Positions 4,662-39,267 of a stretch of 64,000 nucleotides of DNA are shown piece after piece; within the stretch, counting starts at the first letter, position 1; every line of letters starts with the position of its first letter. This stretch comes from Escherichia phage vB_EcoM_G4498. The position numbers were made by a program, and so were the translations under genes. Below the pieces are notes generated by a model. The model ran no database searches. It worked only from the letters and a program-made list of their open reading frames with translations, and was not told the DNA's origin. The stretch lies in sequence record NC_054918.1; one strand, given 5' to 3'.

Positions 4662-5225
4662 TTATTTACATAGTTTAGTTATTATAGCTTCTGCAGCAGC
4701 TTTTAGCTTAGATGCGGTGTTAATACGATTTTTAATTTCAGTATATGCATCGCCAAGAACATCAAGGCTATCAGAATAAACACTTACACTATTGCGTTCG
4801 CTATTTGAAATAGAACCTTTAGTTTTACGATCAAAATCGGTATACACGTCTTGAAGATCGCGGGCTGCCTTCTTTGCATCATCCAATGCATCAAGAGCTT
4901 TATTCAAAGCATTGACATATTTTTTAGTGTCAAACATATTCTTAGAAATTTTAACAGGTGCACGTTCAGGAGTAGCTAATGCAGATTTAGAAACCTGAGC
5001 GCCAGATGCCAATTTCTTAGAAATTTTGAAAAATGCTTTATTGAAACTATTTTCTTGGCTCATCGTAAAAGAACTGTTATCGATGTTATACATTTCAATA
5101 GCTTTAGCTTTCCACTTAAGAAAATCGCCCCGGTCTTTTGGGTCCAAGTGGAAGAATACTTTAGTAAGATCTGCTTCAGATGGTAATTTTGCTGCTTCAG
5201 TTAAAAATTCGGCATAGGTTTTCAT
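4662..5225 (-). CDS. Internal protein-like (capsid-targeted), 187 aa
   Basis: ATG start; N-terminus MKTYAEFLTEA matches the CTS motif; own terminator downstream. Confidence 0.7.
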   Translation of the reverse strand: MKTYAEFLTEAAKLPSEADLTKVFFHLDPKDRGDFLKWKAKAIEMYNIDNSSFTMSQENSFNKAFFKISKKLASGAQVSKSALATPERAPVKISKNMFDTKKYVNALNKALDALDDAKKAARDLQDVYTDFDRKTKGSISNSERNSVSVYSDSLDVLGDAYTEIKNRINTASKLKAAAEAIITKLCK

Positions 5226-6004: not shown

Positions 6005-6081
<77 letters not shown>

Positions 6082-6085
6082 TATT

Positions 6086-6160
6086 TGGCGGACGTGATAG
6101 GATTCGAACCTATAACCAATCGCTTAACAGGCGATCGCTCTGCCATTGAGCTACACATCC
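6086..6160 (-). tRNA. tRNA-Asn (anticodon GTT)
   Basis: anticodon arm ATCGC-CTGTTAA-GCGAT; T-loop GGTTCGAATCC; encoded CCA. Confidence 0.8.
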
Positions 6161-6164
6161 AAAT

Positions 6165-6251
6165 TGGTGGGGAGCGATGGAGTCGAACCACCCGAGTCGC
6201 AATGACAATGGATTTACAGTCCACACCGCTACCTCTACGGGATAACTCCCC
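6165..6251 (-). tRNA. tRNA-Tyr (anticodon GTA), long variable arm
   Basis: 87 nt; anticodon arm GTGGA-CTGTAAA-TCCAT; acceptor GGGGAGT/GCTCCCC; encoded CCA. Confidence 0.8.
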
Positions 6252-6260
6252 TAATTAATT

Positions 6261-6335
6261 TGGTGGCCCTGGGTGGAATTGAACCACCATCTGGCGATTA
6301 TGAGTCGCTTGCTTGAACCTTCCAGCTACAGGGCC
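6261..6335 (-). tRNA. tRNA with CAT anticodon (Met or lysidine-modified Ile)
   Basis: anticodon loop CTCATAA; acceptor GGCCCTG/CAGGGCC; encoded CCA. Confidence 0.8.
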
Positions 6336-6336
6336 T

Positions 6337-6412
6337 TGGTGCTGATTGACGGAATCGAACCGCCGACCTTCTCATTACAAGTGAGTTGCTCTACCTACTG
6401 AGCTAAATCAGC
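6337..6412 (-). tRNA. tRNA-Thr (anticodon TGT)
   Basis: anticodon loop CTTGTAA; T-loop GGTTCGATTCC; encoded CCA. Confidence 0.85.
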
Positions 6413-6417
6413 AAAAC

Positions 6418-6507
6418 TGGCGGAGGCGATAGGATTTGAACCTATGAGTCGCCGGAGCGACTGCCGGTTTTCAAGACCGGTGCATTAAACCACTCTGCCA
6501 CGCCTCC
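6418..6507 (-). tRNA. tRNA-Ser (anticodon TGA), long variable arm
   Basis: 90 nt; anticodon arm CCGGT-CTTGAAA-ACCGG; encoded CCA. Confidence 0.85.
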
Positions 6508-6509
6508 AG

Positions 6510-6583
6510 TCTCCGTGACAGGATTTGAACCTACGACATTCTGCTCCCAAAGCAGACGCTCTACCAAACTGAGCTACACGGAG
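6510..6583 (-). tRNA. tRNA-Pro (anticodon TGG), CCA not encoded
   Basis: anticodon arm TCTGC-TTTGGGA-GCAGA; abuts tRNA-Ser as in the T4 Pro-Ser dimeric precursor. Confidence 0.85.
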
Positions 6584-6593
6584 TAAATTAAAT

Positions 6594-6668
<75 letters not shown>

Positions 6669-6672
6669 AATT

Positions 6673-6759
6673 TGGTGCGAGAAGTGGGACTCGAACCCAC
6701 AAGGAAATCATTCCGCAGCATTTTAAGTGCTGTGCCTTTACCAATTTGACCATTCTCGC
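6673..6759 (-). tRNA. tRNA-Leu (anticodon TAA), long variable arm
   Basis: 87 nt; anticodon arm CAGCA-CTTAAAA-TGCTG; encoded CCA. Confidence 0.85.
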
Positions 6760-6760
6760 G

Positions 6761-6834
6761 CTGGGAATAAAGGACTCGAACCTTTGCATCCTGGAATCAA
6801 AATCCAGTGCCTTACCAACTTGGCTAATTCCCAA
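6761..6834 (-). tRNA. tRNA-Gln (anticodon TTG), CCA not encoded
   Basis: anticodon loop TTTTGAT; acceptor TGGGAAT/ATTCCCA; 1 nt from tRNA-Leu (dimeric precursor arrangement). Confidence 0.85.
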
Positions 6835-7229: not shown

Positions 7230-7628
7230 TCAACGATAGTATGAGTATGGGCATTTACGATTTGCCACCAGTGAAACGATTGGAACCATAATCTGGTTTA
7301 TTTCATTTTCTTTAATAATATCACGCAGCTTATCTTCTGTTTCAGCATACGCAATTAAATCATCATACCCACCACAAGGATAATAATTATCACCTGCGAA
7401 TAAAAGAAAATTTACCTTAGATGGATTTACGTAATAATGGTCTTTAGGATATTTAGTTCCTCTCCAATCAGTTACTTCAACATAACGGTAAGAAAATCCA
7501 TTTTTACTTTCAATCCAACTCCACGCTTCAAAAGGAGTATTAAAAACTTTATCAGGTATTAAATTACCTTCAAAATGAGAAGGATTTGCATAATCCCCGG
7601 CATAAACATAATATTCGTTAATACTCAT
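7230..7628 (-). CDS. Hypothetical protein, 132 aa
   Basis: ORF with ATG start; Tyr/Trp-rich; no recognisable motif by eye. Confidence 0.55.
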   Translation of the reverse strand: MSINEYYVYAGDYANPSHFEGNLIPDKVFNTPFEAWSWIESKNGFSYRYVEVTDWRGTKYPKDHYYVNPSKVNFLLFAGDNYYPCGGYDDLIAYAETEDKLRDIIKENEINQIMVPIVSLVANRKCPYSYYR

Positions 7629-7814
7629 TTATTCACCTTTAGAAATTTTATCCATAACGATAGCGATTAAACCAATTAAAAATGCTACTACAAGTGAAAA
7701 CACATTTTCTGCTGTAGTTAATAATCCGCATATAAATCCAGCAAACATTGAAAAACTAAAAGCGGAAGCAGAAATTGCAATAGCAACATTTCGAATTAAT
7801 TCACAGCGTTTCAT
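7629..7814 (-). CDS. Small membrane peptide, about 61 aa
   Basis: internal ATG at 7812-7814 preceded by GAGGAG RBS; two hydrophobic segments; directly downstream of an early promoter copy. Confidence 0.5.
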   Translation of the reverse strand: MKRCELIRNVAIAISASAFSFSMFAGFICGLLTTAENVFSLVVAFLIGLIAIVMDKISKGE

Positions 7815-7842
7815 TTTATTCTCCTCAGTAGTTGATAGGGTA

Positions 7843-7872
7843 ATAGTATCACAACTAAAACCACATGTAAAC
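7843..7872 (-). promoter_or_regulatory. T4 early-type promoter (GTTTAC, 18 nt spacer, TACTAT) with conserved leader
   Basis: minus strand GTTTAC (7867-7872) and TACTAT (7843-7848). Confidence 0.55.
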
Positions 7873-7875
7873 AAT

Positions 7876-8100
7876 TTATTCAACACCAGCGGCTTTCAAA
7901 AGTTTCTTAAGATTGGCAACACCTTGAGCAGAAAATGTGACCTTTCCACCTTTTTCACTGATAGAACCAACCAATTTAGCAAGTTTATCATTAGGAATTT
8001 TTTTAAAATCAGCCAATGTCCCATCAAAGGTTTTTGAAACAAAAGGCAGTTCATCTTCATGTCTTTTAGCTTCTACAATAAATTTTTGATATGTTTCCAT
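7876..8100 (-). CDS. Internal protein-like (capsid-targeted), about 74 aa
   Basis: N-terminus METYQKFIVEA from ATG 8098-8100; alternative ATG at 8112 adds METK. Confidence 0.6.
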   Translation of the reverse strand: METYQKFIVEAKRHEDELPFVSKTFDGTLADFKKIPNDKLAKLVGSISEKGGKVTFSAQGVANLKKLLKAAGVE

Positions 8101-8137
8101 TTTAGTTTCCATTTAGATGTTTTGTTTTGATAGGGTA

Positions 8138-8167
8138 ATAATATCACTACCCCATCTAAAAGTAAAC
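8138..8167 (-). promoter_or_regulatory. T4 early-type promoter (GTTTAC, 18 nt spacer, TATTAT) with conserved leader
   Basis: minus strand GTTTAC (8162-8167) and TATTAT (8138-8143). Confidence 0.55.
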
Positions 8168-8177
8168 GGTTTATAAA

Positions 8178-8486
8178 CTATTTTATTCCGCGTGATGCAA
8201 TTGTGTTCTGCCGTTTAACGCCAGTTTGTTTAAAGTCATGATTGTCGATTTGATCGGTACGAGCAACTCCGAATGATGATTTGATTTTAGCCTTAGATCC
8301 TTTAGTTATAGAAATAAACATCTCGGAAGCCCCTTTCTTAAAGTCCGAGGCGATTACTTCAACGCCGTTCTTAGCAAGTGACTTCAGAATTGCCTCTGCA
8401 TACTCATCGTCAAGACTCGTCTGAGTATTAATAACGAATGTCTTTGGCGCAGCCGCTTCATTGATAAATTCTTTAAATGTTTTCAT
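8178..8486 (-). CDS. Internal protein-like (capsid-targeted), 102 aa
   Basis: ATG start; N-terminus MKTFKEFINEA. Confidence 0.7.
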   Translation of the reverse strand: MKTFKEFINEAAAPKTFVINTQTSLDDEYAEAILKSLAKNGVEVIASDFKKGASEMFISITKGSKAKIKSSFGVARTDQIDNHDFKQTGVKRQNTIASRGIK

Positions 8487-8517
8487 TTTTATTTTCCTAA
8501 TTAATTTTGATGAGATA

Positions 8518-8547
8518 ATAGTACCACAACCCTATTTAAAAGTAAAC
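8518..8547 (-). promoter_or_regulatory. T4 early-type promoter (GTTTAC, 18 nt spacer, TACTAT)
   Basis: minus strand GTTTAC (8542-8547) and TACTAT (8518-8523). Confidence 0.5.
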
Positions 8548-8820
8548 TCATTTTAAATAAATTGCGTATTTTTTATAACCCGCTGACTCATGACGAAGAC
8601 CATTATCATTAGCAAAACGCTCAATGTTGTTAATTTGATTCTGGTCAAGTTCAGAGATGTCAAACACGAAAAAGTTACGTTTGTTACCAACTGTTACATA
8701 GTCAGTTAAATCAATATCATATAGGTAATTGATGTCAGCAATCAAAGTCTTGACAGCTTTGCTAATTTTTACTTTTTCGTTAAAAGCAGCTTCAGCAATA
8801 AATTCTTGATACGTTTTCAT
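8548..8820 (-). CDS. Internal protein-like (capsid-targeted), about 90 aa
   Basis: track start at 8838 is GTG; ATG at 8818-8820 gives MKTYQEFIAEA. Confidence 0.7.
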   Translation of the reverse strand: MKTYQEFIAEAAFNEKVKISKAVKTLIADINYLYDIDLTDYVTVGNKRNFFVFDISELDQNQINNIERFANDNGLRHESAGYKKYAIYLK

Positions 8821-8856
8821 TTTATTCTCCAATTTCACATTTGTTTTGATAGGGTA

Positions 8857-8886
8857 ATAGTATCACTACTAAAACCCCGTGTAAAC
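8857..8886 (-). promoter_or_regulatory. T4 early-type promoter (GTTTAC, 18 nt spacer, TACTAT) with conserved leader
   Basis: minus strand GTTTAC (8881-8886) and TACTAT (8857-8862), 37 nt upstream of the ATG at 8820. Confidence 0.55.
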
Positions 8887-8898
8887 AACTTTGTGAAA

Positions 8899-9583
<685 letters not shown>

Positions 9584-9584
<1 letters not shown>

Positions 9585-10309
9585 TATAGTACCTTTAGTG
9601 TATTTTTAATTTTAGAAAAAAGTTCTTCAAGAGAACCATCGTTTGTAATTACTAAATCGCCATCACGAATTGGCAATCCAGCTTCTGTAATATGTGTATC
9701 ATTGGATTTTTGACCAGGACGAACTACATGAATTACTGTAGCACCCATCGCCCTAGCCGCATCCATTTCATGATCTTGACGGGTATCAGGAACGATATAA
9801 TAATCATAACCTGAGTTAAATTTATCAAGATAATCTAAAGCAAATAATTTTACCCAGTACATGCGGTCGAAGTTATTAACAATCAAATCCGTACCTAGGG
9901 CTTGCATCAGACGACGGACTGACCATTGATCTTCAATATTATTTATAACGTCAATAATCTTGTTAAATGCTACGGAATTAACTGATTCTTGTCCTTCGTC
10001 ATCAAAAACAAACACACCTTTAATTGGGCTTTTACCATTAAGATAGCAAAATGCTTGTTCCATAATGGTGATTACTTCTAATTTAGTCAGATTTAAATTA
10101 GTCTCACGATCATAGTCAATTCCTTCAAACTCTTTACGAGTTAAGCAAGGATAGTCAGTGTTTGCTGCAAATACTCCCCATGCATAAGCCAATGCATCCT
10201 TAATAGGACCAGCAAGTTGGTATTTAATTGCAGAATAATTGCTCATGATAAAATCAGCAGTAGTATCTTTTCCACTACGCTTTACACCGCTTAAAAAGAT
10301 TAGTTTCAT
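9584..10309 (-). CDS. 1: Deoxynucleoside monophosphate kinase (gp1)
   Basis: 241 aa from ATG 10307-10309 with GAGGAG RBS; P-loop-like LSGVKRSGKDT. Confidence 0.85.
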
Positions 10310-37364: not shown

Positions 37365-37789
37365 TGCTTCTGATCCCTGAAACTCATGAATTAGTTCTCG
37401 AGAATGTCGAAGCACTTATTCCTGAAGCACAGGGTCGCTTTGACGAATTGTCTTCTGCTTTAAATAAAGACGATATAAATACAATTGTCGAGAATATGCT
37501 TGATGATGAAACTGATTTAGCGGTTGCATTAGCTTCTATTAATGAAAATATGCCGTTAAATGAATTTATCGTTAAACATGTTTCTGCCCGTGGTGAAATT
37601 ACTCGCACTAAAGATCGCAAAACCCGCGAACGTAATGCATTTCAAACTACCGGGTTGTCTAAAGCAAAACGTAGACAAATTGCTCGTAAAGCTACCAAAA
37701 CGAAGATTGCCAATCCAGCAGGTCAATCTCGTGCTCAGCGTAAGCGTAAAAAAGCTCTTAAACGCCGTAAAGCATTAGGATTAAGCTAA
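37364..37789 (+). CDS. 68: Prohead core protein gp68
   Basis: 141 aa; synteny. Confidence 0.9.
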
Positions 37790-38427
37790 TGAATGAACCC
37801 CAATTACTAATTGAAACTTGGGGTCAACCTGGCGAAATTATTGATGGCGTACCAATGCTTGAATCTCATGATGGAAAAGACTTAGGTTTAAAACCGGGTT
37901 TATACATCGAAGGAATATTCATGCAAGCGGAAGTCGTCAATAGAAATAAACGTCTTTATCCAAAACGTATATTAGAAAAAGCGGTAAAAGACTATATTAA
38001 TGAGCAAGTTTTAACTAAACAAGCTCTCGGAGAATTAAATCATCCTCCACGCGCTAATGTTGACCCGATGCAAGCCGCTATCATTATAGAAGATATGTGG
38101 TGGAAAGGAAATGACGTATACGGACGAGCTCGTGTTATTGAAGGTGACCACGGTCCTGGAGATAAATTAGCAGCTAATATTCGTGCCGGATGGATTCCAG
38201 GAGTTTCTTCTCGTGGATTAGGTTCATTGACTGACACAAATAAAGGTTATCGTATCGTAAACGAAGGATTCAAATTAACTGTAGGTGTTGATGCAGTATG
38301 GGGTCCAAGTGCTCCAGATGCATGGGTAACTCCTAAGGAAATTACCGAATCACAGACGGCGGAAGCCGATACAAGTGCCGATGACGCCTATATGGCTCTC
38401 GCAGAGGCCATGAAAAAAGCGTTATAA
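37789..38427 (+). CDS. 21: Prohead core scaffold protein and protease gp21
   Basis: 212 aa; synteny 68-21-22-23. Confidence 0.95.
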   Translation: MNEPQLLIETWGQPGEIIDGVPMLESHDGKDLGLKPGLYIEGIFMQAEVVNRNKRLYPKRILEKAVKDYINEQVLTKQALGELNHPPRANVDPMQAAIIIEDMWWKGNDVYGRARVIEGDHGPGDKLAANIRAGWIPGVSSRGLGSLTDTNKGYRIVNEGFKLTVGVDAVWGPSAPDAWVTPKEITESQTAEADTSADDAYMALAEAMKKAL

Positions 38428-38457: not shown

Positions 38458-39267
38458 ATGCTTAAAGAACAACTGATTGCCGAAGCGCAGAAAATTGATG
38501 CTTCCGTTGCTCTTGATAGTATTTTCGAATCAGTTAATATTTCTCCGGAAGCAAAAGAAACTTTCGGCACTGTATTCGAAGCTACCGTCAAGCAGCACGC
38601 CGTTAAATTAGCTGAATCTCATATCGCTAAAATTGCTGAAAAAGCAGAAGAAGAAGTAGAAAAAAATAAAGAAGAAGCAGAAGAAAAAGCTGAGAAGAAA
38701 ATCGCTGAGCAAGCTTCTAAATTCCTTGACCATCTTGCAAAAGAATGGCTCACTGAAAATAAATTAGCAGTAGATAAAGGTATCAAAGCCGAACTGTTTG
38801 AATCCATGCTTGGTGGATTGAAAGAGCTCTTCGTTGAACACAACGTTGTTGTTCCAGAAGAATCAGTTGATGTTGTAGCTGAAATGGAAGAAGAACTGCA
38901 AGAACATAAAGAAGAATCAGCTCGTCTGTTCGAAGAACTCAATAAGCGTGACGCATATATCAATTATGTGCAGCGTGAAGTGGCATTGAGCGAAAGTACT
39001 AAAGATCTGACTGAGTCTCAAAAAGAAAAAGTCTCTGCTCTGGTCGAAGGTATGGATTATTCAGATGCATTCTCAAGTAAATTGAGTGCAATCGTAGAAA
39101 TGGTGAAGAAATCTAATAAAGATGAAAGCACTATTACTGAGAGTATAAATACTCCTGATACTGAAGCAGCCGGACTGAATTTCGTCACTGAAGCTGTAGA
39201 AGATAAATCTGCACAAGGTGCAGAAGATATTGTAAGTGTATATGCGAAAGTCGCATCTCGTTTCTAA
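38458..39267 (+). CDS. 22: Prohead core scaffold protein gp22
   Basis: 269 aa acidic coiled-coil protein; synteny. Confidence 0.95.
   Translation: MLKEQLIAEAQKIDASVALDSIFESVNISPEAKETFGTVFEATVKQHAVKLAESHIAKIAEKAEEEVEKNKEEAEEKAEKKIAEQASKFLDHLAKEWLTENKLAVDKGIKAELFESMLGGLKELFVEHNVVVPEESVDVVAEMEEELQEHKEESARLFEELNKRDAYINYVQREVALSESTKDLTESQKEKVSALVEGMDYSDAFSSKLSAIVEMVKKSNKDESTITESINTPDTEAAGLNFVTEAVEDKSAQGAEDIVSVYAKVASRF
39144..39151 (+). promoter_or_regulatory. T4 late promoter TATAAATA inside the 3' end of gene 22 (P23-like)
   Basis: exact TATAAATA about 135 nt upstream of the gene 23 ATG. Confidence 0.6.

Follow-up and report, generated by a model that had tools for sequence, protein, structure and literature searches.

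A variable internal-protein locus carrying the named genes ip9, ip7 and ip8 in Escherichia phage vB_EcoM_G4498

The internal proteins of phage T4 attach to the scaffolding core by means of a capsid-targeting sequence of about 10 residues, which is removed by gp21 (PMC9026906, PMC5694885), with targeting being governed mainly by residues 4 and 7 and processing by residues 8 and 10, as described by Mullaney and Black (PMC9026906). About 1000 of these molecules are embedded in the T4 DNA, where their lysines touch DNA phosphates, and are injected (PMC3012670). IPI* is known to inhibit GmrSD-CT596 (PMC12373910), and T4 Ip2 and Ip3 inhibit GmrSD-ECOR21 and GmrSD-ECOR17, with no cross-protection among Ip1-3 (Silas et al. 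2025, PMC12373910). We here analyzed a window of 64,000 nucleotides from Escherichia phage vB_EcoM_G4498 (sequence record NC_054918.1), in which three small genes, ip9, ip7 and ip8, are found where T4 carries ipI. We consider it highly probable that this is a variable ipI-type Tequatrovirus locus built of ip9-ip7-ip8 modules, the products of which would be capsid-targeted, cut by gp21, injected and probably active as defence inhibitors, with the modules being swapped by recombination.

Identity of the ip9-ip7-ip8 locus

A preliminary description of this DNA had proposed three internal-protein open reading frames (ORFs), and these are indeed present on the minus strand, as ip9 (8548..8820, 90 amino acids), ip7 (8178..8486, 102 amino acids) and ip8 (7876..8100, 74 amino acids). 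The N-terminal motifs quoted in that description are also present, although they were listed in an order opposite to that of the coordinates, as it is ip9 that starts with MKTYQEFIAEA, ip7 with MKTFKEFINEA and ip8 with METYQKFIVEA. In PHROGs, each of the three proteins belongs to a family of its own, the label being internal head or internal virion protein in every case, with Ip9 matching phrog_7673 (E 2.8e-54), Ip7 phrog_2667 (E 5.2e-41) and Ip8 phrog_8765 (E 9.5e-25). Compared with phage RB15, which carries Ip8, Ip7 and Ip9 in the same gene order, Ip8 of the window is 99% identical, Ip7 about 99% identical with one substitution in the alignment, and Ip9 94-95% identical (95% in the cargo, i.e. 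the part that follows the targeting sequence). The annotation of phage RB32 lists Ip7, Ip9 and Ip5 at this locus, together with the remarks "replaces ipI" and "flanked by 43 bp direct repeat". Because of the PHROGs labels, the identities to RB15 and the RB32 annotation, the three genes are identified, by their sequences, as known and named RB15-type alleles ip9, ip7 and ip8 in the variable internal-protein locus of T4-like phages. The finding is thus already known, and the shuffling cassette described below is likewise published. The locus is said, in papers that cite the work, to have been first described and its ip genes named by Repoila in 1994, where indels at the repeated cassette of this locus were reportedly also seen.

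The three genes sit in the slot of T4 ipI, between the two conserved flanks 57B/Acb1 (8899..9357, minus strand; Pfam PF23474, E 2.7e-60), which adjoins the array as had been proposed, and tRNA.4 (7629..7814, minus strand), which encodes a hydrophobic membrane protein of 61 amino acids (phrog_1692, E 5.4e-35). The interval 7629-8898 was originally presented as an internal-protein array as a whole; it does hold the three ip genes, but also tRNA.4, whose product is no internal protein and which carries the label tRNA.4 in the annotation of T4 and RB32 as well. The statement that T4 has a single internal-protein gene at this position was borne out, with only ipI being found there between trna.4 and 57B.

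Searching a phage collection with 7600-8920 using megablast gave matches in 641 records, nearly all from Tequatrovirus and relatives, 12 of which hold at least 80% of the query at one place. The top match was Escherichia phage 310Ecol104PP, having the same three-gene layout at 100% coverage and 98% identity. Searches of large protein databases returned close T4-like relatives only, in 13-16 clusters per protein.

With regard to Ip8, the window differs from the RB15 type by the substitution K2E, which is absent from 12 of 12 aligned relatives, all of these starting with MKT where the window has Glu at position 2 (METYQ). The substitution corresponds to a single A-to-G change, by which the start region (8095-8112, minus strand) becomes a tandem ATGGAAAC-TAAA-ATGGAAAC. 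A second in-frame ATG is found four codons upstream of the ip8 start, at 8112.

Capsid-targeting N-termini and their cargoes

We found seven matches to a relaxed capsid-targeting regular expression in the window, with none in 200 Markov shuffles and about 1.6e-6 expected in the window by calculation, and the N-terminal motif is therefore not a matter of chance, in agreement with the earlier reading of the three N-termini as a genuine T4-type capsid-targeting signature. Ip7, Ip8 and Ip9 all hold Tyr or Phe at position 4, Phe7, Ile8 and Glu10-Ala11; the three family alignments show no variation at Phe7, Ile8 or Glu10, and at residue 4 have either Tyr or Phe among the alignment rows listed. The head machinery that would act on such a sequence is encoded on the plus strand of the same window, with gene 21 for the prohead protease at 37789..38427 (Pfam Peptidase_S77, E 1.5e-111), the enzyme expected to cut the capsid-targeting sequence, and gene 22 for the scaffolding core protein at 38458..39267 (Pfam T4_CASP, E 5.2e-90). 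The gp22 protein is a component of the prohead core and the target of the capsid-targeting sequence (PMC5694885). In all, gp21, gp22, gp67, gp20 and gp23 are encoded within the window.

By analogy with T4, we infer packaging of Ip7, Ip8 and Ip9, cleavage by gp21 after Glu10, and injection, which is also the published view of the locus and had been suggested in the preliminary description. The predicted mature proteins would have 92 amino acids and a pI of 9.65 for Ip7, and 64 amino acids and a pI of 9.6 for Ip8, both with a net charge of +4 to +5, and 80 amino acids with a pI of 6.8 for Ip9. As a separate observation, an internal Ile-Ser-Glu, agreeing with the gp21 motif (Leu or Ile, any residue, Glu), occurs within the mature parts of two of the proteins, at residues 47-49 of Ip8 and residues 55-57 of Ip9, with no such motif inside mature Ip7 nor in T4 IPI, IPII or IPIII.

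For comparison of the cargoes, the first 11 residues were removed from each protein. The cargoes of Ip7, Ip8 and Ip9 were unrelated pairwise, with BLASTP E-values of at least 0.83 and hhalign probabilities of at most 1.4% using the family alignments, and hidden homology among them was rejected on these grounds; the claim that the cargoes are unrelated to one another thus holds at both sequence and profile level. Homology of the cargoes to T4 IPI, IPII and IPIII was similarly rejected, and the possibility that all three might be close homologs of one single known T4 internal protein found no match, with cargo-only BLASTP E-values of at least 2.8 against IPI-III.

It had been stated that the functions of the cargoes could not be assigned from sequence, and this agreed with our searches, as Pfam, PADLOC, PDB and fold comparisons gave no function. 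Pfam yielded only sub-threshold noise for Ip7, Ip8 and Ip9, a sequence search of the PDB with the three proteins gave nothing below E 0.02, and one weak PADLOC match to Csn2 (E 0.006) was taken as noise. The AlphaFold2 model of Ip9 (pLDDT 77) has a helix leading into a small alpha/beta sandwich, and that of Ip7 (pLDDT 67) a ferredoxin-like beta-alpha-beta-beta-alpha-beta core to which a basic, disordered tail is attached. Foldseek against BFVD gave a single match at E ≤ 0.001 (6.2e-06), to an unnamed protein of 535 amino acids, with all named matches being weaker and uncharacterised.

The Ip9 cargo was also found outside of T4-like phages. A homologue lacking the targeting sequence is encoded as a stand-alone protein of 72 amino acids in the Guernseyvirinae phage M01 (2504-2722 of the compared stretch), and another, likewise without targeting sequence, in an unannotated ORF of Seuratvirus ECP2304 (2432-2716 of the compared stretch), both phages being siphoviruses. 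Furthermore, the domain lies near the C-terminus of a 759-residue protein of Kuttervirus SeKF_19 (455-2734 of the compared stretch) and near that of an 861-residue relative, both belonging to phrog_3867. An exhaustive protein database search with the Ip9 cargo returned 8 representatives. We met no report on this cross-lineage distribution, with no literature search having been aimed at it.

Early-promoter cassettes and exchange of modules

Each of the three ip genes had been described as having its own early promoter and leader, in near-identical copies. The promoters and leaders are real, but they are present in four copies rather than three and the copies are more divergent than was stated, being 60-91% identical over 46-78 nt. 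Their common core is a 46-nt direct repeat found at 7832-7877, 8127-8172, 8507-8552 and 8846-8891 (67-91% identical), with a weaker likeness reaching through the leader and the targeting-sequence codons. All cassettes are on the minus strand. That of ip9 is intergenic (8821..8898), with a -35 TTTACA and a -10 TACTAT that together span 8885 to 8857, the -10 being preceded by TG and followed downstream by the Shine-Dalgarno sequence GGAG. The ip7 cassette (8487..8547) has TTTACT at 8546-8541 and TACTAT at 8523-8518, and the ip8 cassette (8101..8177) has TTTACT and TATTAT spanning 8166 to 8138. The fourth copy, upstream of tRNA.4 (7815..7875), has TTTACA and TACTAT spanning 7871 to 7843, and over 46 nt the ip9 cassette is 91% identical to this copy (7832-7877). 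With tRNA.4 being driven by the fourth copy, the cassette is not confined to genes for internal proteins. It is also found at T4 ipI, at RB15 Ip5 and at ipIII of the window.

In coding-strand orientation, every copy has GTTTAC(A/T), a 17-nt spacer and TG-n-TA(C/T)TAT, then ACCCTATCAAAA, a Shine-Dalgarno sequence and ATG. All four copies match TTTACW-N17-TAYWAT followed by a Shine-Dalgarno sequence and start codon, and three of them passed a sigma-70 scan with extended -10; the ip7 copy scored 8/12, which is under the scan threshold, and its promoter was identified by direct reading of the sequence. Comeau et al. 2014 (PMC4122927) published TTTACW-N17-TAYWAT as the consensus of the early-promoter shuffling elements (PeSLs) in the PST/T4 pair. 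A search for intrinsic terminators in the array found none.

We compared 7500-9400 with the corresponding regions of RB15, RB32, 310Ecol104PP and T4 using BLASTN. The ip8 module (about 7880-8126) is missing in RB32, with end-points within the 46-nt repeats at 7832-7877 and 8127-8172. The window in turn lacks the Ip5 module that RB15 and RB32 carry, and its cassette upstream of ip9 aligns with the upstream cassettes of both Ip9 and Ip5. Against T4, homology ends at 7877 in the tRNA.4 cassette and restarts at 8799 inside the targeting-sequence codons, with T4 ipI occupying the place of ip9-ip7-ip8. Since the end-points of these indels lie inside the repeats, cargo modules are considered to be gained and lost through recombination within the promoter, leader and targeting-sequence segments that they share, which is also the published model (Arbiol 2010, PMC2839356; Comeau 2014, PMC4122927). 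The proposal of a modular and diversifying array was thereby supported, as the indels relative to RB32, RB15 and T4 end in the repeated cassette.

The 77-residue 'ip7 protein' of phage OLB35 was found to be a chimera, consisting of about residues 28-72 of Ip7 joined to the C-terminal 35 residues of Ip9, and recombination should therefore occur inside the cargo regions too. The cassette repeat moreover takes in the final codons of the gene that precedes it (8893-8909 and 8542-8558), and Leu-Lys-stop (plus strand: TTATTTTAAAT) is the common end of 57B, Ip9 and RB15 Ip5. This shared end may be the upstream edge of the recombination homology.

Proposed function and comparison with known systems

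Each gene forms one module, comprising a T4-type early promoter, a Shine-Dalgarno leader, ten capsid-targeting codons and an unrelated small cargo. Because of the analogy with T4 IPI, IPII and IPIII, we propose a mechanism in which the N-terminal peptide, with its aromatic residue at position 4 and Phe7, would attach the protein to gp22 in the scaffolding core of the prohead, whereupon gp21 would cleave after Ile8-x-Glu10. The mature proteins of 64 (Ip8), 92 (Ip7) and 80 (Ip9) residues would then remain in the head together with the DNA and be injected at the start of infection, probably inhibiting a host nuclease or another first-line defence. Finally, the repeated promoter and targeting segments would provide the homology by which modules could be added, deleted and swapped between co-infecting phages.

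Several observations weigh against this mechanism. Mature Ip9 is predicted to be neutral, T4 internal proteins being basic, and in the accessible literature we found no proteomics or direct report of Ip7, Ip8 or Ip9 in virions or in cleaved form. No T4 late promoter (TATAAATA) was found within the array (7600-9400), while packaging happens late; the closest upstream TATAAATA on the coding strand is at 9940-9947, inside gene 1, so that read-through or protein synthesized beforehand should account for the supply at the prohead stage. When ip4-10 were studied against further GmrSD variants, no reproducible inhibition was obtained (PMC12373910), and apparent interactions of ip7 with CLS_011 and of ip8 with CLS_018-019 were not reproduced on repeat (PMC12373910). 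The suggestion that the three proteins are plausible anti-defence effectors thus matches the published view of the locus, but the GmrSD tests of ip4-10 have been negative or irreproducible.

The missing late promoter, with early-type promoters only being present in the array, would suit a situation in which Ip7, Ip8 and Ip9 are mainly early cytoplasmic proteins made after infection, their N-terminus being a relic of recombination homology. Homologues of the Ip9 cargo without capsid-targeting sequence in Guernseyvirinae and Seuratvirus phages would fit with such a role, as would the finding that T4 IPIII produced by the host can rescue infection even if it lacks the targeting sequence (PMC9391042). 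We nevertheless regard this as very improbable, as protein-level conservation of the targeting and cleavage residues extends to every family member, in different genera, and T4 ipI likewise has an early promoter without an internal late promoter, yet IPI is packaged and injected. If instead the proteins are indeed packaged, they could act only as bulk head contents, by charge neutralization and DNA condensation or ejection, without any specific host target. That mature Ip7 and Ip8 are small and basic agrees with such a role, and so do the sheer number of T4 internal-protein molecules within the DNA with lysines contacting the phosphates (PMC3012670) and the lack of a target in the published GmrSD screens. 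We find this unlikely, since Ip9 is neutral, three unrelated and well-conserved cargoes are not required for charge alone, all three of the T4 internal proteins proved to be specific inhibitors, and presence of the genes varies among close relatives, as is typical of host-range genes.

A stronger alternative, short of being probable but to be taken seriously, is that Ip7, Ip8 and Ip9 are injected anti-defence proteins with targets other than GmrSD, such as other modification-dependent nucleases, DNA glycosylases or systems that have nothing to do with restriction. In favour of this alternative, ip4-10 gave no reproducible inhibition of any tested active GmrSD variant, the cargoes show no relationship to IPI, IPII and IPIII, and the Ip9 domain is present in phage lineages beyond the T4 group; on the other hand, the tested GmrSDs are a small sample of a very diverse family, and positive evidence points to no other target. 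A related and rather doubtful possibility is that the Ip9 cargo is a small, widely shared phage accessory domain that became an injected effector in T4-like phages by capture of a targeting sequence, in which case Ip9, perhaps together with Ip7 and Ip8, would be directed at some defence outside the GmrSDs tested.

Beside ip9, ip7 and ip8, the window holds four further ORFs with a targeting N-terminus, all on the minus strand. Three of these form a second variable internal-protein locus (3-985), directly downstream of the lysozyme gene e (982-1470), in which ipIII (3-212) is incomplete at the edge of the window, its 70 visible amino acids being 100% identical to those of T4, followed by an ORF of 86 amino acids (274-534; phrog_2667/35655) starting with MKMYQEFIVEA and by an Ip5 paralogue of 93 amino acids (704-985) that is 48% identical to RB15 Ip5. 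Within this locus only ipIII has the early-promoter cassette. T4, by comparison, has only ipIII and ipII at its gene e locus. The fourth is an ORF of 187 amino acids (4662-5225; phrog_2280, unknown function), lying outside of both classical loci, of which the start MKTYAEFLTEAA is a good match to a capsid-targeting sequence with a gp21 site. It is present in 163 phage records and named 'hypothetical protein' or 'Phage protein' in 20 of 20 among the matches listed. Judging from its N-terminus, this ORF may encode an unrecognised internal protein.

All genes at 5.6-11.8 kb of the window are on the minus strand, in the order, by descending coordinates, of gene 3, gene 1, 57A, 57B/Acb1, ip9, ip7, ip8, tRNA.4, tRNA.3, tRNA.2 and a cluster of ten tRNA genes (6005-6833) for Arg, Asn, Tyr, Met(CAT), Thr, Ser, Pro, Gly, Leu and Gln. 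In T4 there are eight tRNA genes split by segB, followed by rnaC and rnaD, whereas the window lacks segB between Arg and the other tRNAs.

The discovery value of these findings is small, as the genes are named, the variable internal-protein locus is textbook knowledge and the cassette has already been described. Still, Ip7, Ip8 and Ip9 are orphan predicted injected proteins, while all three T4 internal proteins are inhibitors of type IV restriction, and what Ip7, Ip8 and Ip9 target is a question shared with the field. Pairing a phage having at least seven ORFs with a targeting N-terminus with the defences of wild E. coli could reveal inhibitor-defence pairs, and such pairs of Ip proteins and defences could help explain the host range of therapeutic T4-like phages.

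In comparison with known systems, the cassettes resemble PeSLs in that the consensus is matched, the repeats lie between small variable ORFs and the indel end-points fall inside the elements (PMC2839356, PMC4122927). PeSLs differ in having an upstream stem-loop, whereas the only such structure seen upstream of the promoters here is a weak AT-rich inverted repeat of 9 nt at the ip7 copy (8533-8541 / 8551-8559); elements associated with internal proteins are known to have weak AT-rich stem-loops (Arbiol et al. 2010, PMC2839356). T4 IPII and IPIII represent the same class of injected proteins, with MKTYQEFIAEA being identical in Ip9 and nearly so in the other two, but the genes of T4 Ip2 and Ip3 belong to the other internal-protein locus, adjoining lysozyme gene e, and their cargoes are unrelated. 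T4 IPI* has the genomic position and the kind of early-promoter cassette in common with the three proteins, as well as, by prediction, an N-terminal propeptide cut off by gp21 and a mature protein of small size, while differing in a propeptide of 19 residues instead of 10, in a cargo without detectable sequence similarity to Ip7, Ip8 or Ip9, and in having a GmrSD target, with none known for the latter. Among the closest systems are those of RB15 and RB32, which differ by an additional Ip5 module adjoining 57B and, in RB32, by the lack of Ip8, but which agree with the window in strand, flanks (57B and tRNA.4), promoter cassettes, gene order and protein identities of 94-99%.

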